From contig OZ244141.1 of NCBI GenBank assembly GCA_965216295.1, forward strand, positions 295,671 to 359,670: a stretch of DNA of 64,000 bases, in the 5' to 3' direction. Of the stretch, positions 1,668 through 54,100 are shown piece after piece. Below the pieces are notes generated by a model. That model did no database searches, had not been told where the DNA came from, and saw only the letters and a list, made by a program, of their open reading frames with translations. The DNA comes from Minisyncoccota bacterium (GTDB lineage: Bacteria; Patescibacteriota; Minisyncoccia; Phycocordibacterales; JABAAK01). Within the stretch, counting starts at the first letter, position 1. Each line of letters opens with the position of its first letter. The translations under genes and the position numbers were made by a program.

Positions 1668-2036
1668 ATGGGTAAATATACAGCAGTCCTTCTTATTATT
1701 ACTGTCATTCTTTTGATACTTTACTTTTTTGGTAATAATGGTAATAAAAGAGATGCTCTTGCTAATACCACTCCGCCATCAGAAGTAACAAAGCTTGGTG
1801 CTTGTGCTATAACAGGATGTAATAGTCATTTGTGTGTAGAGAAAGATCAGGCTAATGATATTGTTACAACGTGTGAATTTCTCCCTGTCTATGCTTGTTA
1901 TCAAAATGTTGGTGTGTGTGAGTGGCAGATTGATGACAATGCCTGTGGTTGGACACAGACGGATGAATTGAAACAGTGTATCGTAGAGGTAGAAAAAGAA
2001 GACGCTCTTAATCGTTCTGTTTACGAGGCTATATAG
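1668..2036 (+). CDS. small N-terminally membrane-anchored cysteine-rich protein, hypothetical
   Basis: 122-aa ORF with an N-terminal hydrophobic anchor (AVLLIITVILLILYFF) followed by a soluble part with 9 Cys. No recognisable family. Its stop codon abuts tRNA-Glu. Confidence 0.45.
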   Translation: MGKYTAVLLIITVILLILYFFGNNGNKRDALANTTPPSEVTKLGACAITGCNSHLCVEKDQANDIVTTCEFLPVYACYQNVGVCEWQIDDNACGWTQTDELKQCIVEVEKEDALNRSVYEAI

Positions 2037-2107
2037 GCCCCATCGTCTAGCGGCTAGGACGTAGCCCTCTCACGGCTGAAACCGGGGTTCGATTCCCCGT
2101 GGGGTCA
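2036..2107 (+). tRNA. tRNA-Glu (anticodon CTC)
   Basis: 72-nt cloverleaf read by eye. Acceptor GGCCCCA/TGGGGTC, T-arm GGGGTTCGATTCCCC, anticodon stem TAGCC/GGCTG with loop CTCTCAC, so anticodon CUC. No encoded CCA. Confidence 0.85.
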
Positions 2108-2164
2108 CATACAGATAATTATTTACATCAATAAATTTAAGGTTGAGTTTTTTATACATAACAC

Positions 2165-2190
2165 AGCTTATATTTTTTAAAATATAAGCT
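2165..2190. promoter_or_regulatory. perfect palindrome AGCTTATATTTT-tt-AAAATATAAGCT (12-bp arms) about 15 bp upstream of the methyltransferase start; candidate operator
   Basis: The inverted repeat was read directly. It lies between tRNA-Glu and the ATG at 2205. Confidence 0.4.
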
Positions 2191-2204
2191 ATACTTAACT
2201 TAAT

Positions 2205-3296
2205 ATGAGTAACACAAGGTGGAGCAGGATACCAAAAAATATAAGAAAAAATGTTCATGGAATGTGTAGCTATCTAGCGATGTTTCCACCAAATATTCCA
2301 AACTATTTTATTAAAAAATATACAAAAGAAGGTGATGTTGTTTTAGATCCATTTTCCGGAAGAGGTACTACTATCACAGAGGCTTCCTATCTCAACAGAA
2401 AGGCAATAGGTTCAGATTTAAACCCATTAGCAATAGTTTTATCTCGTGCCAAAGTTAGTGTCCCATCAAGAAATTCTATAATTAGAAGAATAAAAAAAAT
2501 TGAAACAGATTTTAAAAAATCAAAAAAAAATAGTATCATCAATCAAGAAAAAAATATAAAGATGATTTTTAATCCTAGTACACTAAGAGAATTAGTTTTT
2601 CTTCAAGATAATTTAAATTGGAAAAAAAATAGAATTGATAATTACATAACTGCAATGATTCTAGGGATTTTACACGGCGGATCAAAAAATTATCTATCAA
2701 TTCAAATGCCTAATACTTTTTCAATGTCTCCAAACTACATCAAAAGTTATATAAAAAAAGAAGGATTGAAAAAAGAATATAGAAATGTATTTAAATGTCT
2801 TCGTAAAAAATTTGAGAATTGTTATGATAAACCAAATATTGCAGGGAATGTATTTAAACAGAATGCATTAAAGATGAATAAGGTGAAAAAAAATAGCGTA
2901 AATTTGATAATCACATCACCACCATATTTAGACGTAATTAAATACGGACAATATAATTGGATAAGGCTTTGGTTTATAAAAGAGGGTGCGAGAAAGATAG
3001 ATCAAACACTATTTACATCTCAATCTCTAAATAAGTATGTTAATTTTATGAAAGATTTTTTAAACCAATCAAAAAAAGTACTAAAAAGAAACGGAAAAAT
3101 TATACTAATAATAGGTGATGTTAGAGGTTTAAATCTTGCGAAAAAAGTTTGGGAAAATAGCGCGGAACCACTCGGTTATGTAAAAGAATATTTGTTAAAG
3201 GATGAAATTGATGAAAACACAAAAACTACAAAAATATGGAATGAAAGAAAGGGAAAAGCTACGAAAATTGATAGAGTTCTTATTTTGTCAAACTAG
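2205..3296 (+). CDS. DNA amino-methyltransferase (N4-cytosine or N6-adenine), motif I then motif IV order
   Basis: 363 aa. Motif I-like VVLDPFSGRGTTITEA lies near the N-terminus and motif IV LIITSPPYLD about 190 aa later, with a putative target-recognition region between. Very AT-rich coding sequence. The 3' end overlaps the convergent GHKL gene by 9 nt. Confidence 0.75.
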   Translation: MSNTRWSRIPKNIRKNVHGMCSYLAMFPPNIPNYFIKKYTKEGDVVLDPFSGRGTTITEASYLNRKAIGSDLNPLAIVLSRAKVSVPSRNSIIRRIKKIETDFKKSKKNSIINQEKNIKMIFNPSTLRELVFLQDNLNWKKNRIDNYITAMILGILHGGSKNYLSIQMPNTFSMSPNYIKSYIKKEGLKKEYRNVFKCLRKKFENCYDKPNIAGNVFKQNALKMNKVKKNSVNLIITSPPYLDVIKYGQYNWIRLWFIKEGARKIDQTLFTSQSLNKYVNFMKDFLNQSKKVLKRNGKIILIIGDVRGLNLAKKVWENSAEPLGYVKEYLLKDEIDENTKTTKIWNERKGKATKIDRVLILSN

Positions 3297-5522
3297 CTTA
3301 TGAAAAATTAATAATTGTAATATTGTACTACTGGCGACAGAAAGCGCCTCATTTTTAAATTCATTGATTGTAGATTCATCTGCAGATTCACCTTTGTCAC
3401 CAACAAAAAGAGAATCAAGATTTTTTGAATGTTCTAAATTAAAACAGGAGTATGCAAGAAATATAGAATAGTGACTTTTCATCTTTTCAATATTTTTTAT
3501 TTTATTCTTTTTTATAAAAGATTGATAATATTTATTAGAGAGATTTATGAAAATTATAATATTATTTTTTGTTTCTTCATATTTTGCAAAATCTTTCTCA
3601 TTGTTAAAAACCCTTTTCCATATTTCGTAAGTTTTTTTATCATCTTTTGATACAGATTTAATTTCAGGAGAACCACGTAAATTTTTTTTATTACCAGAAT
3701 TCTCCTCAATAATAAATATCACCCTCCCTTCACTTATTAAATCTTTTTTATGCGAATTTAACAAAACATGAACTTTAAAATTTTTACCTATTTTTGCAAC
3801 ATTACTTAGAGCACATCTAATTCTGCTTCTACCGCCAAAGAAATTATCTATTTGTATAGAATCTTTTTTAATATATTTTTTACTTTCGTCAATTAATTTG
3901 AGTTGATAGTATTTTGAGGTCTCATTTGATAAATCAGATTCAATATTTAAAGTTAATATTTTACCTATTTTTGCATTTATAGGAGGTTGGTTTGTTATTT
4001 TTATATATGTAGGAAAATCTTTTGTTTCAATTATTTTTTTCTTTCCACCATCACCCGATCCATTACCACCCGATCCACCATCACCTTCAGTTTTTTCATC
4101 ACCCGAAATACTTATTTGTCCAACAAGTAAATTATTTTTTAACATTTTTGCTAAAATTTCTTGCATTTTTTCAGATCCCTTTTGCATACCTTTTGCTGCT
4201 TCTTCAGAATATTTTCTACTTTGTTCATCCAACAGGATAGGGTCATCAGAGATAAACTTAACTATCTCTTCTTTAATTTTCTGCCTAGATTCATTCGTTA
4301 ATCTTTGTCTATCTGTAATAAATGTCTTTTTTTTGCTTTCATTAGAAATTTTATTGCAGTTAACTTCTATAATTAAATTTTCTTTTAATTGTGGGAGTTT
4401 TGCATTTTCTTCAATTAGGCGTCTTGAAAATTTTCCATGTACTTGTCCATTGAATGTTACTAAAATGGGATTTTTACAATCATGTAAAAAACGATTTACC
4501 TTTTGACTTTCACCATTTTTATCATCCTTTAGATAATAGTATGTCAAAACTATTTCCTCCCCATCATTAAAATATTGAGATACTGTAGTTTTATTAAGTA
4601 TTTTATTTTCTTCAACATTATTTATCAACCTTCTTTTTAAACCTTGCATGTTTTTTACATTCCATTGCTCTGGTTTATCTTTTTTGTCTCTATTAAAATA
4701 CCCTATTTTATATGCAAATGCAGGGTTGAAAAGTATTTCATCACAGACCTTATAAAACTCACGTCCAATTATATTTTTTTCAAATTCAATGTGAAAAACA
4801 AGAGTGCCAAAAAAATCCTTTTTAAATCCTTTGTTAATTTCAGAATTAAAAGTTTCCTTCATTTCATCAAAGGGAATTGTTATTGGTAAATCGTCTTCAG
4901 ATGAAACTAGGTATTCATATTTTCCCTGTTTTGCAAACTCATCATCATCTAAGGAATTAAATCGTATAATTGTAAATGAAAGATTTGTATCTTTAACTGA
5001 ACAAATTATCGTATATTTATTACCACCGCAAACCGTCGATCCACCTTGACCAAAAGACCCCATTGTATATTTTTTTCTAAATTTATTAGAGGCATTTAAA
5101 GATAATATAGTATTTGTCATTTCTTCATTTGTTAAACCCACACCATTGTCCCAAAACAAAAAATTAGTAAATTTTTTTGTTTTATGTATTTCCACAAAAA
5201 TGTCATCTTTATGTATTTCTTCATTTTTTTCTTTTAAAAAATTAATAACATCATAAGGGCTATTAAAATTTTCAAATTCTTTATATTTTTTTGCAAATTT
5301 TTCTATATATGCATCAATTGAATTTGTTATACGTTCTAGAAGTAAACCCACATCAGCATCAGCTGAATGTACTGTTGAATAGTTTGCCTCTCTGTCACCC
5401 AAATCTCTCCATTTCAGTTTATCGTCATCATTCAAAGATGACACTATTTGATCAACTTCAACAGTTTCTATATTTCTTTTTTGCAAAAAGGATTTTATAA
5501 TTTTTCTGATGTCATTTCTCAT
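3288..5522 (-). CDS. MORC/Hsp90-like GHKL ATPase with Gly-rich linker and uncharacterised roughly 250-aa C-terminal domain
   Basis: 744 aa. Bergerat-fold motifs are present: N-box ERITNSIDAY, G1 box WDNGVGLTNEEM, G2 box MGSFGQGGSTVCG. A GDGGSGGNGSGDGGKKK linker precedes a C-terminal region with no recognisable motifs. The start ATG overlaps the stop of the upstream 75-aa ORF (ATGA). Confidence 0.7.
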   Translation of the reverse strand: MRNDIRKIIKSFLQKRNIETVEVDQIVSSLNDDDKLKWRDLGDREANYSTVHSADADVGLLLERITNSIDAYIEKFAKKYKEFENFNSPYDVINFLKEKNEEIHKDDIFVEIHKTKKFTNFLFWDNGVGLTNEEMTNTILSLNASNKFRKKYTMGSFGQGGSTVCGGNKYTIICSVKDTNLSFTIIRFNSLDDDEFAKQGKYEYLVSSEDDLPITIPFDEMKETFNSEINKGFKKDFFGTLVFHIEFEKNIIGREFYKVCDEILFNPAFAYKIGYFNRDKKDKPEQWNVKNMQGLKRRLINNVEENKILNKTTVSQYFNDGEEIVLTYYYLKDDKNGESQKVNRFLHDCKNPILVTFNGQVHGKFSRRLIEENAKLPQLKENLIIEVNCNKISNESKKKTFITDRQRLTNESRQKIKEEIVKFISDDPILLDEQSRKYSEEAAKGMQKGSEKMQEILAKMLKNNLLVGQISISGDEKTEGDGGSGGNGSGDGGKKKIIETKDFPTYIKITNQPPINAKIGKILTLNIESDLSNETSKYYQLKLIDESKKYIKKDSIQIDNFFGGRSRIRCALSNVAKIGKNFKVHVLLNSHKKDLISEGRVIFIIEENSGNKKNLRGSPEIKSVSKDDKKTYEIWKRVFNNEKDFAKYEETKNNIIIFINLSNKYYQSFIKKNKIKNIEKMKSHYSIFLAYSCFNLEHSKNLDSLFVGDKGESADESTINEFKNEALSVASSTILQLLIFHKLV

Positions 5523-5746
5523 AATCTAAACTTTTTATTTCTTTTATAATGAAACTTACTTTTTATATTTTTTACCTCTATTTCTATTTCTTTAAATATT
5601 TTTTGAATTTCCGCTTCATTATATTCATATGCACTTCTGTTAGCGCAATTTCCAAGTATTTTTAGAGACTTAAGAACCATGTTAGTTCTATAGTTAGCTA
5701 ATCTTCTAAATCTATCCCTTTTTTCCTTTGGTTTATTATTTATCAT
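5519..5746 (-). CDS. small basic protein, hypothetical; translationally coupled to the GHKL ATPase
   Basis: 75-aa ORF, Lys/Arg-rich, ATG start. Its stop overlaps the GHKL start codon, and an AT-rich putative promoter region (TATATATAT) lies upstream. Confidence 0.45.
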   Translation of the reverse strand: MINNKPKEKRDRFRRLANYRTNMVLKSLKILGNCANRSAYEYNEAEIQKIFKEIEIEVKNIKSKFHYKRNKKFRL

Positions 5747-5876
5747 AAATACGTAGTGTATTTATATATATATCATATCCTTATGTTATTTGTCAATTAT
5801 AAGGTGTCTTAGTGTTTAATAAAGAAAATTTGTGATTGTAAATATGGAGAAAAGGTATCAAAAAATAAACAAAACT

Positions 5877-6686
5877 CTATTCCTCCAAAATATAGTAGGT
5901 GATAGAAGAATATGAGGTTATCTTATTCTCACCAACACTAATAGGCACATCAGCTACATCTAACGACGAGGATTCTAAACTAACAGATTTGGCACCGTAT
6001 TGTGAAGAGTTTCGATATGGAGAAGCACCACCACCACCTATATTCACACTCATTACCTTACCGAGACGTATACCCGTCTCTTTTGATACCTTTTTCGCTC
6101 TCTCCTTTGCATTTTTCACTGAAAGGACAAGAGCATCATCTTGCAATTCTCGCTGTTTTTCAGGATCAACCAAGAACTGAAGATTACTCACATTTTCAAC
6201 ACCTTTGTCGGAGATAGCAGAGAGGATACCTGCAGCAGCATCTAAATCTCGTATCGTTATCGCAGTAGTATGAGTTACTTCATATCCTTTAAATACTCGT
6301 TTGCGAGTACCTTTTTTAGCAAGTATTTCATACTCATACTTTGGATGTATAGAATAGGTGATTGTTTTAACATCTTCGTCATCAATCTTAGCCTTTTTAT
6401 CCAAATAATTATATATATCAGACACCTTCTCAGAAACCGCAACTCTTGCTTGAGAAACATCATCATTCAATTCTCGAACAGTGAAACTCAACTGTGCTAT
6501 GTCTGGGATAGCGAGTACTTCTCCGTATCCAGTAAAGGTGAGCGTATCTCTCTCATTCAAATTAGCAACTCTATTTTCTCTGTATGTGTAGGATAAGACA
6601 GCAATAGAAATAACGACAAGTAAAACCGTAGCAGAAAGCATGAGTGCTATGAGAGCTTTGGTTTTTTTATCCATATCTGCGAACAT
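5877..6686 (-). CDS. SIMPL-domain (DUF541, YggE-like) periplasmic/membrane-anchored protein
   Basis: 269 aa with an N-terminal TM anchor. The C-terminal region shows the SIMPL-like pattern (ALVLSVKNAKERAKKVSKETGIRLGKVMSVN). Confidence 0.6.
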   Translation of the reverse strand: MFADMDKKTKALIALMLSATVLLVVISIAVLSYTYRENRVANLNERDTLTFTGYGEVLAIPDIAQLSFTVRELNDDVSQARVAVSEKVSDIYNYLDKKAKIDDEDVKTITYSIHPKYEYEILAKKGTRKRVFKGYEVTHTTAITIRDLDAAAGILSAISDKGVENVSNLQFLVDPEKQRELQDDALVLSVKNAKERAKKVSKETGIRLGKVMSVNIGGGGASPYRNSSQYGAKSVSLESSSLDVADVPISVGENKITSYSSITYYILEE

Positions 6687-49334: not shown

Positions 49335-49742
49335 ATGAAACAAAAGGTACGGAAAAGTAAGTATGACGTACGGATTGGTCGCTCTGCGAGTGGGCAGGGT
49401 CTATTTACAAAAGCACCTATTCGAAAAGGGGACTTTGTGATTGAATACCATGGACCTATTATTTCACGTGAACGGGCAGATGCGATGGGAGGGCGGTATC
49501 TCTTTGAAGTGAGTGAACGGAAGGTTATCAATGGTTCGGTGAGGTACAACCTAGCACGCTATATCAATCATTCCTGTCGTCCAAACTGTGAGACTGATGT
49601 GGTGCGTGGGAAGGTGTATATCTATGCGAGACGCAATATTCGTATGGATGAGGAGTTACACTACGATTACGGTAAAGAGTACTTTGAAGAGTTTATTGAG
49701 CCTGCTGGGTGTCAGTGTGAGAAGTGTGCGGGTCGTCGGTAA
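49335..49742 (+). CDS. SET-domain protein (putative protein lysine methyltransferase)
   Basis: 135 aa with RYINHSCRPNCE (the NHSCxPN motif), DEELHYDYG (the ELxxDY motif), and a Cys-rich post-SET CQCEKCAG. Starts 3 nt after the smc stop. Confidence 0.75.
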   Translation: MKQKVRKSKYDVRIGRSASGQGLFTKAPIRKGDFVIEYHGPIISRERADAMGGRYLFEVSERKVINGSVRYNLARYINHSCRPNCETDVVRGKVYIYARRNIRMDEELHYDYGKEYFEEFIEPAGCQCEKCAGRR

Positions 49743-51132
49743 GGAGGTCTGTTTTATAAATTTCTTTTTGTGTTACATATTCTTTGAAAACTTTAAAAAA
49801 ACTTTTTGCCATCTGTTCGTAATAATTTTTGTCATATAAATTTTCATATTCATATTCTTTAGGAAAAGATTCACAGTATTCTCTAGACAAGACATCTTCT
49901 TGTTTTTTTAGTACAGAATCGTTTGATTGATTTTTTTGAAGTTGAAAGGTTTCATGCAACATGTAAGCACCGATATTTTCTAAATTGTGTATAGCATAAA
50001 AATTTTTATGACAAAGCACTGTTTTTTCTATTAAATATTTTTCTGCTGAATCAATAGCAGCAAGGAATTTTTCTTTATCATTATTAAAGATATGCAATAA
50101 AATTTCCATCATGAGATCAATGTTTGTTTTATTTGTTGCTTCTTGTGTGTTATGTTGCAAGACGTTAAGACTGAATGAAGGAAATTTTTGAAGTGTAAAA
50201 AGGTTTCTTAGATTTATTACTTTCATAGGAATAGCAGATTTTACAAAAAGAGCAATTATAAATTGAACTTCGTCATTCAATGGCTGTGGCGTTTGATTCA
50301 TTATTTCGGTATTACAATGTCCTAATACTATCTCTTGAAGTTTATTTAATACTTCTTTTTCTATATTGTATTGATATGGTTCTTTGGAGAAAAATTTATT
50401 TATATATCCATTAAAATCAGTTTCATTTCCATATATATGATGATAGACTTTTTCAAGATTATTAAAATCACCAACGAATATCACTCTATCAAAACCAAAT
50501 TTATTCTTTTCATCATCTTGCAAAGGAGAAAAGGCATTTAGTATTTTAAACGCATGTTTTGGTTCAAGGCGATCTAAATCATCTAATATCAAAATGTTTT
50601 CTTTAGCAAGATCCATTTTATCTTCTCTACCATCTTTTACTTCTTTCAATGCTTCAGAGATGAAATTTTCCAAACAACTATTATGTATTTTTTTTACAGT
50701 ACTTTGGACTTCTGAGTTTTCTCCATTTAAAAGTTTTTTAATGGTTTCAATAGTTTGTGATTTAATACCAACCAAAGATCCAAAACATTTTATTATAAGA
50801 TCTTTTGCATTTTTTAATTTTATTTTTCCATTTTCATCTTTTAAGAATTTATTAATGATAGGCTCGTGTTGCTCTGCTAGTTGTACAAATAAATCAGCTG
50901 CTATAACTTCTAGTATATCAACATCATTGTGTACTTGATATTTAACTGGGTATAAATGAAATGTATTATATTTTTCAGAATTAGCTCTAAAAAATTCATT
51001 TAAAAAGTATGTTTTTCCCATACCAAACGATGCACTAAAGAATATTCTTTTATTACTTTTTAATTCAATAAAAGTATTAAATCCCTCATTTTTAGTTTCT
51101 GTAGATATTATTGTTTTATCCATGTGTAGCAT
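49693..51132 (-). CDS. KAP-like P-loop NTPase, hypothetical
   Basis: 479 aa with Walker A FFSASFGMGKTYFL and Walker B ILILDDLDRL (the hhhhDDLDR type typical of KAP NTPases). The C-terminal 16 codons run through the left direct repeat into the antisense strand of the SET 3' end. Confidence 0.5.
   Translation of the reverse strand: MLHMDKTIISTETKNEGFNTFIELKSNKRIFFSASFGMGKTYFLNEFFRANSEKYNTFHLYPVKYQVHNDVDILEVIAADLFVQLAEQHEPIINKFLKDENGKIKLKNAKDLIIKCFGSLVGIKSQTIETIKKLLNGENSEVQSTVKKIHNSCLENFISEALKEVKDGREDKMDLAKENILILDDLDRLEPKHAFKILNAFSPLQDDEKNKFGFDRVIFVGDFNNLEKVYHHIYGNETDFNGYINKFFSKEPYQYNIEKEVLNKLQEIVLGHCNTEIMNQTPQPLNDEVQFIIALFVKSAIPMKVINLRNLFTLQKFPSFSLNVLQHNTQEATNKTNIDLMMEILLHIFNNDKEKFLAAIDSAEKYLIEKTVLCHKNFYAIHNLENIGAYMLHETFQLQKNQSNDSVLKKQEDVLSREYCESFPKEYEYENLYDKNYYEQMAKSFFKVFKEYVTQKEIYKTDLLTDDPHTSHTDTQQAQ
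49725..49741. repeat. direct repeat copy 1 (TGTGCGGGTCGTCGGTA) at the 3' end of the SET gene; att-like
   Basis: The identical 17-mer recurs at 52986..53002. Flanking similarity extends to about 22 bp with 2 mismatches. Confidence 0.85.
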
Positions 51133-51230
51133 TCTAACATATTAATGAAAAAATAAAATTATCATGAAGAAGGATAAAACTAAGGTTTTAAAACGTTACA
51201 AACAAATAGTTTGTAAAAATTTACTTAAGA

Positions 51231-52010
51231 TTGTATAATAAAAAGATGAACAAAAATAAAACTTTATTTTTCTCCAATCAATGGTTGAATTTTTCTAAAT
51301 TTATTTATGATGTTTTCTCAAAAACACTATTAATTGCGGCATTTATTACACTTATATATTTTCTATTTAAAGGATATTGGATAGAAGTCGGATTATTATT
51401 ATTATTTTCAATATTGATAGCACCAATTATTGAATTTCTGTTAGAAGAAATATTTCGTGTTACATTTTTTACTAAGAAAGAAAGGGTTCTTATGACTAAT
51501 TTTTCTAAGGATAATAACCTAAATGTTGATTCTGTAATGAGTCTTTATGCATCAGGAGCAAAAGACGACATGAAAACATTTTCTGAAAAAACTCAATTAT
51601 TTAAAATGCTATCTCCAGAAAAAAAAGGACTTTCGGCAGTGTTTGGTATTGCGCCTACGATGCTTATTAGTTTATTTGCATATGCAGGATTACTTAGTTA
51701 TTTTTCTACAGGGAATATATATAGTGGAATAGACATCAATTATTTAAACTACGCTTCAATATTGATATTATATCTTGCAGTCGATGTTAGAATTTTACTT
51801 GTTGAAATATATTTTTCCCGACAGCTTAGTGTAACTCCATATGAACAATTTATATTGCCTTTTAAAATAATTACAATACTGCTTTTATGTCTTTTTTTAT
51901 TTTTAAACATTAACTTATCTTATACATTAATATTCAGTGTCGGATTACCATTAATTTTTATATTTTCTATAATAATGTTTTATGGTATTGCGAAAAAGAA
52001 AGATTTGTAA
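51231..52010 (+). CDS. polytopic membrane protein, hypothetical
   Basis: 259 aa with several hydrophobic helices. AT-rich, inside the repeat-bounded segment. Confidence 0.45.
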   Translation: MYNKKMNKNKTLFFSNQWLNFSKFIYDVFSKTLLIAAFITLIYFLFKGYWIEVGLLLLFSILIAPIIEFLLEEIFRVTFFTKKERVLMTNFSKDNNLNVDSVMSLYASGAKDDMKTFSEKTQLFKMLSPEKKGLSAVFGIAPTMLISLFAYAGLLSYFSTGNIYSGIDINYLNYASILILYLAVDVRILLVEIYFSRQLSVTPYEQFILPFKIITILLLCLFLFLNINLSYTLIFSVGLPLIFIFSIIMFYGIAKKKDL

Positions 52011-52309
52011 GTAAGGGTGGAAAATTTATCAAGTGACGCACGGAAAACGAGAAAATCGTTTTTTAAAGTTTTATTCTGTATCTTTGTTGTTAAGTATTAT
52101 ATATTATTTTATATTTTTAACTACGAAGTAGTAGGGAAGAGCATCAAAGAAATTTTTTACTGTTTTTATTTTTGAAAGAGAATGAGGATATAGGTAGAAA
52201 ATCTTTACTAAACATAGTCAACATCGTATCACCTTTTTAATAATCAGTAAAAGGGTAATGAAAACAAATATTAAATCTGATACTAAAATAAGAAATGACA
52301 ATAATATTA

Positions 52310-52954
52310 TTATTTTTTATTTAAATATAAATCTCTTAAATATATGCCACCTATTTCAACAAATTCATTAGCAAAATCATACATTCCATTTTCATATGCG
52401 TAATTTTTCAGTAACACAATAACCTCACTATTACTTTGTATGAATTCTTTCATTGTTTTGAAAGAGCATTCCTGTATATCATATTTACTATCAAAATGTT
52501 GCCCTTCAAATTGTTTAAATAAGAAATCTTTTTCTTTCAATATCATTTTTTTAAGACCACTATTTTCTAATTTAGTTAACCCCAATTCTGTAAGAGCGGA
52601 AGGGGATTGTGATTTAACATTTATTGGAAACTTATCTTCTAAAACTCCTTGTGCTTTTATAATGCTACATCGTGAATCTTCAGGCAAAATACCGACATTT
52701 TTATTAGTTAATGCCTTACATATTAGTTTCAATGGGGAACTCAAATTTTCTCCCAATGATTGAAGATCTTTAGGTGTATCAAGTAATTTTTTAATTTTTT
52801 TCCCAACACCCGAAAAAAGACCTAAAACAATCCCCAAGGCAATTATCGTGGTAGATATGGTAGAAACAATATTAAGAATTTCTATCCAATTCATATTCAT
52901 AAGTATTATAACAAAATTAATAATATTTTGCAAAATCACTACTATTTCTATCAT
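52310..52954 (-). CDS. membrane-anchored hypothetical protein
   Basis: 214 aa. One or two N-terminal TM helices, then a soluble domain with no recognisable motifs. Confidence 0.4.
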   Translation of the reverse strand: MIEIVVILQNIINFVIILMNMNWIEILNIVSTISTTIIALGIVLGLFSGVGKKIKKLLDTPKDLQSLGENLSSPLKLICKALTNKNVGILPEDSRCSIIKAQGVLEDKFPINVKSQSPSALTELGLTKLENSGLKKMILKEKDFLFKQFEGQHFDSKYDIQECSFKTMKEFIQSNSEVIVLLKNYAYENGMYDFANEFVEIGGIYLRDLYLNKK

Positions 52955-52985
52955 ATCTGCAATATATCAATCAAAATACTATAAT

Positions 52986-53002
52986 TGTGCGGGTCGTCGG
53001 TA
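52986..53002. repeat. direct repeat copy 2 (TGTGCGGGTCGTCGGTA)
   Basis: Identical to 49725..49741. In-frame it reads C-A-G-R-R-stop, as does the SET gene end. Confidence 0.85.
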
Positions 53003-53072
53003 GGGATGAAAGTAAAAAATTATTAAAATCCACAAAAAGAAAAATAGAGAAGGAAATAGAAAACGCACAGCA

Positions 53073-53104
53073 GTAGAAAGAATCGAACTCTCGTTTCGTG
53101 CTTG
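53073..53104 (-). repeat. partial tRNA-Gly copy (T-arm to anticodon-stem segment), 29 of 32 identities to the tRNA-Gly gene at 54035..54066
   Basis: gtagaaagaatcgaactctcgtttcgtgcttg here versus gtagggagaatcgaactcccgtttcgtgcttg in the gene. Same orientation. Lacks the acceptor 3' end. Confidence 0.7.
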
Positions 53105-53152
53105 ATTTGTACACATTGATATTTTTAATATCATAAATTATAATAACTACAT

Positions 53153-53359
53153 ATGAATAACTACTTTGAAATGTATTTCAACAGGATGTTTAAGAAAAAA
53201 AATCTATTGAAAGTATGGTTTGATAGTGGTAGTTTTTGGAAAAAAGTTTTTGCTGTTATTGGGCTTTTTGCATGTTATACATCATATGTACTCTTTGCGC
53301 TCTTTATAGTCTATAAAGTATCATATTGGATATCAGTGTACATATATTCACGATATTAA
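53153..53359 (+). CDS. small membrane protein, hypothetical
   Basis: 68 aa with one TM (VFAVIGLFACYTSYVLFALFIV). AT-rich. Confidence 0.3.
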   Translation: MNNYFEMYFNRMFKKKNLLKVWFDSGSFWKKVFAVIGLFACYTSYVLFALFIVYKVSYWISVYIYSRY

Positions 53360-53443
53360 GGTGGAGCAAAATACGGAAAGTGTGTAGAGATTGATAGGGT
53401 AGTGAGAATATATTTTTAAAATAAAAATCTTATTTTATTTCAA

Positions 53444-53986
53444 TTATGGAAAAATATTGAAAAATACAAGAACCAAAAGTAGCGAAGGGGATAGTAAAAG
53501 AGAGGTAAATAGAAAGTCTTTACTCAACAAGGTGGTAAAAAAATTTGAATCTTTCGCGAGTGGTTCACCATATTTATTTTTATCTGCATCACCTTTTTTA
53601 AAACATAACCAAAGAATAAAAAGAATATATATTATACATGAACTTGAATAAATTAAACTAGTAAAAGGAACCTCTATTTCATGAAATCTATTTTCCTGAA
53701 TTATAGCCAGTGGCAATTCTAAGACGATATACATTGGTAAAAAGATTAATATCCACCAACCACTTGCATTAAAATCATGCAATCTTTTAACCATAAAGAT
53801 TGTTAAAATAAAAGCTATAATGAATACGAAAAAATAGTCTAAAAAATAGTCTAAAACACTAGGAGGTTGAAAAAATTGACGACCGTACAAGTTTAATAAA
53901 AAAGGAACAGAAAAAAATATCATTAAAGACATCCCGATCCCAAAAATATAAAATTTTCTATTTATTCTATCATTAATTTTTTCCAT
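53444..53986 (-). CDS. DUF805-family inner membrane protein
   Basis: 180 aa with the RLHDFNASGWWIL motif characteristic of DUF805 (YhaH-like) proteins, and multiple TM helices. Confidence 0.6.
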   Translation of the reverse strand: MEKINDRINRKFYIFGIGMSLMIFFSVPFLLNLYGRQFFQPPSVLDYFLDYFFVFIIAFILTIFMVKRLHDFNASGWWILIFLPMYIVLELPLAIIQENRFHEIEVPFTSLIYSSSCIIYILFILWLCFKKGDADKNKYGEPLAKDSNFFTTLLSKDFLFTSLLLSPSLLLVLVFFNIFP

Positions 53987-54026
53987 ATAACGTTATTACT
54001 ATTATACCTATCGTTTAATTTCTAAA

Positions 54027-54100
54027 TGGTGCGGGTAGGGAGAATCGAACTCCCGTTTCGTGCTTGGGAAGCACGCGTCATACCACTAAACTATACCCGC
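54027..54100 (-). tRNA. tRNA-Gly (anticodon CCC), CCA encoded
   Basis: Reverse complement gives GCGGGTA-TA-GTTTAGTGGTATGAC-G-CGTGC-TTCCCAA-GCACG-AAAC-GGGAGTTCGATTCTCCC-TACCCGC-A-CCA. Confidence 0.8.

Follow-up and report, generated by a model that had tools for sequence, protein, structure and literature searches.

The 64,000-nucleotide stretch of DNA analysed here (the window), from a member of the Paceibacterota (CPR), carries at the distal, outer edge of a small island an ORF, KAP479, that is best read, with moderate confidence, as a soluble anti-phage KAP NTPase lying in an integrase-free mosaic of tRNA-Gly repeats, its C-terminal tail being a by-product of the recombination junction. The features of the region are collected in Table 1.

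The sequence-only reading had called the protein KAP-like, and comparison with the PF07693 (KAP_NTPase) profile agrees: KAP479 scores 29.2 bits (E 6.9e-7, with residues 33-286 aligned to positions 26-253 of the 293 in the profile), above the Pfam gathering cut-off of 20 bits, its paralogue KAP481 scores 32.4 bits, and among the matches listed a precomputed PF07693 match is found on most of the at least 120 homologues. KAP479 is a further member of an already known kind of protein and falls in a compact subfamily, which numbers about 1,900 clusters of proteins 460-510 aa long, mainly from Parcubacteria and Bacteroidota. Against PF20693 (YobI-ATPase) it gave no match at E<=1; some of its homologues have weak or faint matches to that profile. 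The 479-aa ORF with its two nucleotide-binding motifs is as claimed, both motif strings being present and intact: FFSASFGMGKTYFL covers residues 31-44 and contains Walker A, and ILILDDLDRL covers residues 180-189. An alignment of 18 sequences shows no variation at G37, G39, K40 and T41, and in one of 118 each is conserved at 90% or more; L181, D185 and R188 are invariant across all 118. Alignment of the homologues makes Met4 (ATG at 51121-51123) the probable start, giving a protein of 476 aa.

The AF2 model of KAP479 (pLDDT 83.2, pTM 0.82) is soluble throughout. The insertion between the Walker motifs is built of amphipathic, soluble helices (residues 73-88, 90-98, 100-117, 125-136 and 150-167), and the C-terminal helical domain holds a conserved NLR motif with R309, a residue that all 18 aligned sequences share and that is conserved at 90% or more in the 118. 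No transmembrane segment is predicted, the highest Kyte-Doolittle 19-residue score being 1.49 against a threshold of 1.6, which together with the model bears out the suggestion that the P-loop domain lacks obvious transmembrane insertions. A recognisable effector domain was not found in KAP479, and a structure search gave no specific match for its C-terminal helical domain. Searching PDB sequences with the profile of the family gave no match below E 0.03, NCBIfam gave no match, PHROGs nothing significant (best E 0.03) and the BFVD viral fold search only weak, generic AAA+ matches.

Table 1. Features of the island and its borders, in window coordinates.
Feature	Position	Strand	Basis
Host SET-domain gene	49335..49742	+	PF00856 E 4e-22
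KAP479, KAP-family P-loop NTPase ORF, 479 aa	49693..51132	-	ORF list, PF07693, PADLOC, AF2
KAP479 disordered C-terminal tail, residues 456-479 and stop	49693..49767	-	codon map, AF2
Repeat L, tRNA-Gly 3'-end-like core with 7-nt insertion	49722..49745		sequence comparison, shuffles
KAP479 C-terminal all-helical domain, residues 287-455	49768..50274	-	AF2
KAP479 Walker B ILILDDLDR, residues 180-188	50569..50595	-	read from sequence
KAP479 soluble alpha-helical insertion between Walker A and B, residues 73-167	50632..50916	-	AF2, hydropathy
KAP479 Walker A ASFGMGKT, residues 34-41	51010..51033	-	read from sequence
ORF259, polytopic membrane protein, divergent from KAP479	51231..52010	+	hydropathy, at least 5 transmembrane segments
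DUF805 gene 3'-end remnant and downstream spacer	52091..52218	-	85% identical to L001 9749-9871
ORF214, protein with two N-terminal transmembrane segments	52310..52954	-	ORF list, hydropathy
Repeat R, second core copy (17/17 exact, 22/24)	52983..53006		sequence comparison, shuffles
Decayed 3' half of second tRNA-Gly copy	53060..53104	-	sequence comparison
DUF805 membrane protein (DUF805-180)	53444..53986	-	PF05656 E 3.5e-14
26-bp core, tRNA-Gly end and 3' flank; empty site in window	54017..54042		BLAST
Intact tRNA-Gly(CCC), proximal anchor of island	54027..54100	-	ARAGORN; Rfam tRNA 68.2 bits

The island is 4.3 kb long and AT-rich (26% GC against about 42% in the flanks), and lies between the SET gene and tRNA-Gly(CCC). 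Repeats L and R match at 22 of 24 positions and share the exact 17-mer TGTGCGGGTCGTCGGTA. When up to three mismatches are allowed this 17-mer occurs twice in the window, where 0.04 occurrences would be expected, and a count of two or more was reached in none of 100 shuffles. Repeat R has further similarity to the DNA next to the tRNA 3' end, and local alignment beside it shows no similarity past the core that would mark a KAP coding remnant. Pfam, PHROGs and NCBIfam searches of all ORFs in the window island, and of those in the insert of the sister strain described below, found no recombinase or integrase domain. The left repeat had been read as att-like. The repeat itself is real, but it is a variant of the tRNA-Gly(CCC) 3' end rather than an arbitrary att site, and since no integrase is present 'att' is used here only as an analogy. 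The 3' end of SET carries the same 7-nt-insertion variant of the core, which a simple single integration does not explain. An Rfam scan returned tRNA only, promoter-like matches did not exceed chance, and a search for terminators gave none, including between KAP479 and SET. Next to tRNA-Glu, elsewhere in the window, is another AT-rich block, which carries defence-type genes (DNA methylase, GHKL ATPase).

Two strains of the species were compared, that of the window and its sister L001, whose flanks are 98-99% identical. The two BLAST matches between them (99.1% and 98.4%) overlap by exactly the 26-bp tRNA-Gly core, and exactly at this core L001 has an inserted 4.4-kb segment, missing from the window, that ends in KAP470 (P0002), the closest homologue of KAP479. 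The presence/absence polymorphism was observed for this KAP470 module; for island A, the 3.26-kb segment at 49746-52982, the searches turned up no other strain that covers it. The second tRNA-Gly copy, of which the window retains the decayed half, is a full-length pseudo-tRNA in L001 (7310-7382). Inserted DNA is bounded by direct repeats from the tRNA 3' end, namely repeats L and R, the decayed tRNA fragment and the 26-bp core around the L001 insert. Exact-protein look-ups with KAP479 (P0001) and SET gave no contig on record, and an L27 look-up re-found only the L001 contig.

Restriction-modification, Abi, toxin-antitoxin, reverse-transcriptase and AAA_15/21 genes are nearby in six of the eight homologue loci inspected, in keeping with the recurrence in defence islands that the sequence-only reading had put forward, and no neighbour gene is conserved across the eight. 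We infer a defensive role, KAP479 being probably a soluble protein that acts alone against phage. The protein, with an N-terminal AAA+/STAND-like ATPase core that holds the helical insertion and, after this core, a conserved all-helical domain, is predicted to be functional; by analogy, its helical parts may sense a phage component, upon which the NTPase would oligomerise, hydrolyse ATP and block infection. The island itself is read as a mosaic of modules separated by repeats derived from the tRNA-Gly 3' end, in which KAP genes of this lineage sit at a module end, facing outwards, and reach the recombination core without having met a stop codon. The KAP479 ORF therefore crosses the core (LLTDDPH) and ends at the first stop beyond, 10 SET-antisense codons on. 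For recombination at the core, too, the direction and enzymology are inferred.

A soluble KAP NTPase might instead work together with DUF805 or another membrane protein of the island, as a two-gene equivalent of the transmembrane NTPases of the Tmn/YobI type. Tmn is a membrane-anchored P-loop NTPase able to defend by ion export (PMC13001434), every island ORF besides KAP479 is by hydropathy a predicted membrane protein, and the window island has one DUF805 gene as well as the DUF805 3' remnant. In L001 both KAP paralogues directly precede DUF805 paralogues, KAP481 and DUF805-172 overlapping by 17 nt and KAP470 being followed directly by a DUF805-180 that is 98% identical at the protein level. 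In the window, however, the same DUF805-180 gene adjoins the tRNA without a KAP gene, the adjacency differing between the strains because of the 4.4-kb indel, and DUF805 is beside the KAP gene in none of the seven other family loci inspected. On this reading the partner once next to KAP479 would have been lost at the SET junction, leaving the protein to rely on a DUF805 gene at a distance of 2.3 kb. Such a split system is regarded as unlikely. ORF259 and ORF214 were rejected as conserved KAP partners, since no homologue of either occurs in the other KAP loci; ORF259 also drew no match in Pfam, PADLOC, PHROGs or NCBIfam.

It could also be that KAP479 is non-defence or decaying cargo, left over from degraded modules and without a current role. 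The remnants that make up the island (half a tRNA, a DUF805 fragment, repeat scars) and the lack of a native stop codon in the KAP479 gene would fit, but the catalytic and family-invariant residues are all intact over 479 codons at 26% GC, where stops arise easily, and the AF2 model is confident, making decay distinctly improbable.

The C-terminal tail is where the soluble NTPase meets the recombination junction. As had been claimed, the reading frame of KAP479 runs through the left repeat into the antisense strand of the convergent SET gene, the two genes overlapping by 50 nt (49693-49742). By the codon map, L463-Q479 and the stop (49693-49746) come from the junction, the repeat encoding L463 to part of T470 and the SET antisense strand S471-Q479, which gives 17 sense codons where the earlier count was 16. 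On the opposite strand the same repeat encodes the SET C-terminus, CAGRR followed by the stop. The junction-encoded tail has a GC content of 55.6% against 26.0% in the ORF body, and reads ...LLTDDPHTSHTDTQQAQ. Across the family the tail has a median length of 6 aa (118 members, range 0-24 aa); in KAP479 it is 20 aa. The repeat-encoded LLTDDPH is matched only by LPTDPH in KAP470, whose ORF also reads out through the core, and the last 10 residues, TSHTDTQQAQ, are unique and specific to the SET context. If the overlap were ancestral the homologues should have the same C-terminal residues; one of 117 shares about six of them and none the remainder. The proposal that insertion created or altered the C-terminus holds in so far as a recombination junction has shaped it, but LLTDDPH was not newly created here: it is common to KAP470, whose core is the junction of the sister-strain indel, and is therefore the element's own recombination arm.

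Residues 456-479 are coil in the AF2 model, with pLDDT below 50 at 465-467 and 470-479. Given this predicted disorder, neutrality is the most likely reading of the tail, which we regard as probably a by-product of the recombination junction. A functional tail would mean either that a C-terminus dependent on the integration state alters stability or activity, or that the antisense overlap with SET regulates one of the two genes. The frame across the core is indeed preserved between KAP470, with a 4-nt insertion, and KAP479, with 7 nt, and the convergent genes overlap without a predicted terminator. The 3-nt difference is nevertheless a GAC repeat, easily produced by slippage, the conservation extends to a single homologue, and tails vary freely in length across the family, so that a function for this one seems very unlikely. 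The run-through of the ORF into SET is accordingly an annotation caveat that follows from the position at a module edge, and not new biology.

The SET gene, for its part, ends in CxCxxC and a 4-aa tail, which is the family norm (median), and the idea that it is truncated or damaged was rejected on this basis. The NusB-RNaseIII-SMC-SET synteny is kept in four relatives. A whole-database search found no SET orthologue more than 90% identical besides SET itself, the next best being 66%, and none of the 12 closest GTDB SET loci scanned has tRNA-Gly downstream of SET. Pattern scans of JGI metagenome contigs and IMG/VR found neither the junction of KAP tail and core nor the 3' end of SET.

Little credence is given to the proposal that integrase-free modules move at the tRNA-Gly core with the overlapping KAP ATPase serving in mobility or target selection, as TnsC or MuB do, or with the KAP C-terminus or activity switched by the integration state. 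Less still attaches to a KAP-type AAA+ ATPase that is simply part of the island's mobility machinery, selecting targets or regulating recombination like those two proteins, even though this would account for the overlap of KAP479 with the core and for the missing integrase.

Little is known of the anti-phage repertoire of the CPR/Patescibacteria, whose genomes are tiny. A compact soluble KAP NTPase subfamily of this size recurs in their variable, defence-type regions, and with other KAP NTPases having proved anti-phage it is a reasonable candidate for defence testing. The two-strain comparison gives a clean view of gene gain and loss at a 26-bp core that derives from a tRNA and has no integrase beside it.

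The PF07693 family includes Kidins220/ARMS and PifA, and two or four transmembrane helices with or within the NTPase domain are typical of its members, though not universal. RdrA of RADAR, of about 800 aa, and QatA of qatABCD are soluble KAP-like ATPases in defence operons. Pfam and PADLOC found no RdrB deaminase and no QatBCD gene near KAP479, and the TM-scores of RdrA and QatA with KAP479 are only about 0.3. KAP479 has in common with the family the Walker A GxGKT, the Walker B hhhhDDLDR and the long stretch inserted between them, but where most KAP proteins have transmembrane helices it has none. In this it is like PifA, which is also without them (PMC13001434) but much longer, the PADLOC PifA profile having 720 positions and giving KAP479 only a local match (E 2e-4). 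Nearer in length is PDC-S20, with profiles of 446-464 aa, a candidate single-gene system which like KAP479 has no conserved partner gene and for which no mention in the literature was found. It gives the best PADLOC match of KAP479 (E 9e-10 and 36.5 bits, with residues 36-449 aligned to positions 42-446 of the 450 in the profile), a remote one without a curated threshold, and PDC-S20 models are also the best match for eight of ten homologues, again remotely (E 1e-5 to 2e-11); KAP470 had no match.

EF_KAP requires both its Walker B and its C-terminal region for defence (PLoS Biol 2026, PMC13552941). Like KAP479, with which it is compared here by description, EF_KAP, one of a set of related KAP-NTPase fusion defence proteins, is a single polypeptide of a KAP NTPase domain and a C-terminal region without a recognised fold; EF_KAP has two transmembrane helices and a C-terminal region of 322 aa, whereas in the soluble KAP479 the helical domain measures about 170 aa. 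Tmn has a transmembrane hairpin inside the P-loop domain which KAP479 lacks, and Tmn-like ion export is for this reason impossible for KAP479 alone. The residues that Tmn needs for function are D276/R279, N297, K325/F326 and R374 (PMC13001434), and the family-invariant D185/R188, N199, K246/F247 and R309 of KAP479 parallel them by order only, without an alignment. For the island the nearest comparison is the tycheposon model from Prochlorococcus (bioRxiv 10.1101/2020.12.28.424599). The modules here differ from that model in having no integrase or replication module, and in distal repeats into which, compared with the tRNA, 4 or 7 nt are inserted; as in the model, the island adjoins a tRNA, its modules are separated by partial tRNA copies, degenerate remnants are present and variability between strains is highest beside the tRNA.

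KAP479, an ORF of 479 codons on the minus strand, has Walker A at residues 31-44 (FFSASFGMGKTYFL) and Walker B at residues 180-189 (ILILDDLDRL), as the sequence-only reading had stated. The true start is probably Met4 (ATG 51121-51123) rather than the ATG at 51132, giving a protein of 476 residues, because homologues align from Met4. Its assignment as a KAP-like NTPase is borne out by Pfam KAP_NTPase, which scores 29.2 bits against a curated cut-off of 20 over residues 33-286. The top PADLOC match is the candidate single-gene defence system PDC-S20 (E 9e-10), whose 450-position profile aligns over nearly its full length (positions 42-446) with residues 36-449, and PDC-S20 models are also the top PADLOC match for 8 of 10 homologues. 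The PADLOC profile for PifA matches weakly and locally, NCBIfam gave no match and PHROGs nothing significant (E 0.03). A word-indexed search returned 143 relatives, the nearest non-self being 49% identical, with named matches in Parcubacteria and Bacteroidota. In an exhaustive profile search of 1.84 billion cluster representatives there were 1,881 matches, of which 1,405 reach E<=1e-30; the best 150 of the 1,881 are mostly of 460-510 aa and align over almost the whole profile. These counts, lengths and coverage make this a compact, uniform subfamily rather than the broad KAP superfamily. The Walker residues, R188, P191, N199, N225, G235, Y243, K246 and R309 are invariant or nearly so in the alignments. 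The order of family-invariant D185/R188, N199, K246/F247 and R309 (residues 185-309, window 49747-51132) parallels, in residue order only, D276/R279, N297, K325/F326 and R374 of Tmn (YobI family), which are reportedly essential; this order alone hints at a common nucleotide-pocket layout.

AlphaFold2, run with 118 sequences, gives a confident model (pLDDT 83.2, pTM 0.82). In it, five soluble helices (residues 73-167) are inserted into the P-loop core between the two Walker motifs; an all-helical C-terminal domain (287-455) and then coil follow. Hydropathy likewise gives no transmembrane segment (maximum 1.49), in line with the earlier claim that obvious transmembrane insertions are lacking. 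No specific match was found for the C-terminal domain, and the family profile retrieved nothing from PDB sequences.

The KAP479 gene lies in an AT-rich block (49746 to ~54026; 26% GC versus 41-42% on either side) with the SET gene at one edge and an intact tRNA-Gly(CCC) at the other. SET is a core gene: the order NusB-RNaseIII-SMC-SET is kept in four Paceibacterota or Kaiserbacteria relatives. The att-like repeat noted earlier is a real direct repeat: 22 of 24 positions match between 49722-49745 and 52983-53006, including the exact 17-mer TGTGCGGGTCGTCGGTA. With up to 3 mismatches allowed, the 64 kb contain the 17-mer at just these 2 sites, where chance predicts 0.04. All the other island ORFs (51231-53986), namely ORF259, ORF214, ORF68 and the DUF805 gene, are predicted membrane proteins, none with a recognisable function. 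The stretch between ORF259 and ORF214 is the leftover of a lost DUF805 gene. A second tRNA-Gly copy is present as a half in the window and as a near full-length pseudo-tRNA at L001:7310-7382; it marks an older module boundary within the island.

Features of the window and of the sister-strain contig L001, with block contents in order from SET to tRNA
Feature	Coordinates	Strand	Remarks
Second AT-rich block	2001-6500		Minimum 25% GC; begins right after tRNA-Glu(CTC)
tRNA-Glu(CTC)	2036-2108		
N6_N4 DNA methylase	2205..3296	+	
HATPase_c_3 (GHKL) protein	3288..5522	-	744 aa
ORF	within 2001-6500		75 aa
SET-domain gene	49335..49742	+	PF00856, E 4e-22
1. KAP479	49693..51132	-	
2. ORF259		+	Polytopic membrane protein
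3. Remnant of DUF805 3' end and downstream spacer	52091-52218		128 nt; 85% identical to L001 9749-9871 (DUF805-172)
4. ORF214			Two N-terminal transmembrane segments
5. Repeat R	52983-53006		
6. Decayed 3' half of second tRNA-Gly copy	53060-53104		
7. ORF68			Membrane ORF, 68 aa
8. DUF805 gene			
tRNA-Gly(CCC), intact	54027-54100	-	
Strain-specific module, 4.4 kb	L001:1978-6372		At tRNA-Gly(CCC) 3' end; absent from window, flanks 98-99% identical

The closest homologue, KAP470 (P0002), is encoded on contig L001 (ENA ERZ25071281 ctg39632), whose genome is nearly identical; the comparison of the two strains is the central evidence. Window 54017-55993 matches L001 1977-1 with 99.1% identity and window 53110-54042 matches L001 7310-6373 with 98.4%, and the two matches overlap in the window by exactly 26 bp, the end of tRNA-Gly and its 3' flank. 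Compared with the window, L001 thus carries 4.4 kb more, placed between two core copies, and the window is the empty site of this module. The module encodes KAP470, at the far end and oriented outwards, together with a MORN_2 repeat protein, two small ORFs and a 343-aa protein with a RelA_SpoT domain; the last resembles a small alarmone synthetase and may be a toxSAS-type toxin. Both KAP paralogues of L001, KAP470 and KAP481, lie directly upstream of DUF805 paralogues (L001:5001-6971 and L001:7849-9796), suggesting that a KAP protein and DUF805 could form a split membrane system; such pairing was seen in none of seven other family loci, however, and is not general. KAP481 ends KEVYKDDRFN without the core and overlaps its DUF805 gene (DUF805-172) by 17 nt. 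A part for the KAP ATPase in mobility of the module is suggested only by generic similarity to the TnsC/MuB fold and by the missing integrase; domain searches found no recombinase domain in any block ORF.

How the two tails are encoded can be read from the junction sequences. KAP470 ends EIYKTD-LPTDPHHLETKRWV, encoded by TCTCCCTACC[GACC]CGCACCATTTAGAA, in which 4 nt are inserted into the tRNA 3' end and the flank found upstream of the window DUF805 gene comes next. KAP479 ends EIYKTD-LLTDDPH-TSHTDTQQAQ, encoded by TCCTTACC[GACGACC]CGCACA, where that core has 7 inserted nt (the repeat of the sequence-only reading), and then by SET antisense. The codon map agrees that the C-terminal end is repeat- and SET-encoded: the repeat supplies L463 through part of T470, and SET antisense supplies S471-Q479. 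The last 54 nt of the ORF have 55.6% GC versus 26.0% in the remainder. Among 118 family members the tail after the conserved E-I-Y position has a median of 6 residues (range 0-24; 20 in KAP479). The same 16 C-terminal residues do not recur in homologues, because tails vary and TD(D)PH is restricted to KAP479 and KAP470, the sole homologue sharing the repeat-encoded tail, which sits at an equivalent junction. The proposal that insertion made the C-terminus thus holds in part: dependence on SET context is limited to the last 10 residues, while the repeat-encoded part, common to KAP470, is part of the module's recombination arm. Residues 456-479 are modelled as coil, with pLDDT <50 at 465-467 and 470-479. 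The tail is most economically read as a neutral extension produced by read-through, and the ORF running through the repeat is a junction by-product; there is little support for a regulatory tail or a decaying gene.

The SET gene, convergent with KAP479 and overlapping it by 50 nt, is unharmed: its end, CQCEKC-AGRR, retains the CxCxxC motif (present in 115 of the 120 best homologues) and the 4-aa tail equals their median. AGRR may be either native or core-supplied. The SET end and repeat R carry the same 7-nt-insertion variant, possibly through tandem integrations, later deletions or an earlier scar.

Eight other homologue loci were inspected. Their neighbours include R-M methylases, GmrSD/HNH and AAA_15/21 (L002), NERD (L003), SocA_Panacea, M78/DUF4411 and Abi_alpha (L004), an EcoRV R-M system with an IS110 element (L045), Fic (L046), zeta toxin (L048), AAA_15/21, reverse transcriptase, MTase-HNH and SocA (L050) and the RelA_SpoT-domain protein (L001). 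No conserved partner gene was found across the eight, and homologues of ORF259 and ORF214 are absent from them. At two independent loci a DUF5677 gene (L002:10436-11206, L004:10476-11390) lies ~1 kb downstream of the KAP homologue with small opposite-strand ORFs between. A tRNA-Met (L003:7844-7918) lies ~80 nt upstream of homologue P0004 and a tRNA-Ala (L004:11478-11554) ~2 kb downstream of P0013, which suggests that the subfamily often resides in tRNA-proximal islands. The second AT-rich block also seems to be a tRNA-proximal cluster of defence-type genes; it contains no integrase, and no second copy of the tRNA-Glu 3' end occurs within the 64-kb window.

In Enterococcus, KAP NTPases that carry fused, uncharacterised C-terminal regions confer phage protection, which depends on Walker B as well as on the fused region (PMC13552941), and QatA is a soluble, DNA-binding KAP NTPase forming hepta- or octamers (PMC13279940). 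From this literature and the homologue neighbourhoods we infer that KAP479 is a stand-alone anti-phage NTPase, in which the helical parts would sense and NTP-dependent oligomerisation would be the mode of action.

The two strains provide a useful natural experiment, and the CPR context is useful as well. The block fits the additive, tRNA-proximal islands described for streamlined genomes (bioRxiv 10.1101/2020.12.28.424599), except that an integrase is absent. KAP479 is a member of neither YobI/Tmn nor RADAR; it is remotely related to the candidate system PDC-S20 and belongs to the KAP family, to the kind without transmembrane helices that is exemplified by PifA (PMC13001434).
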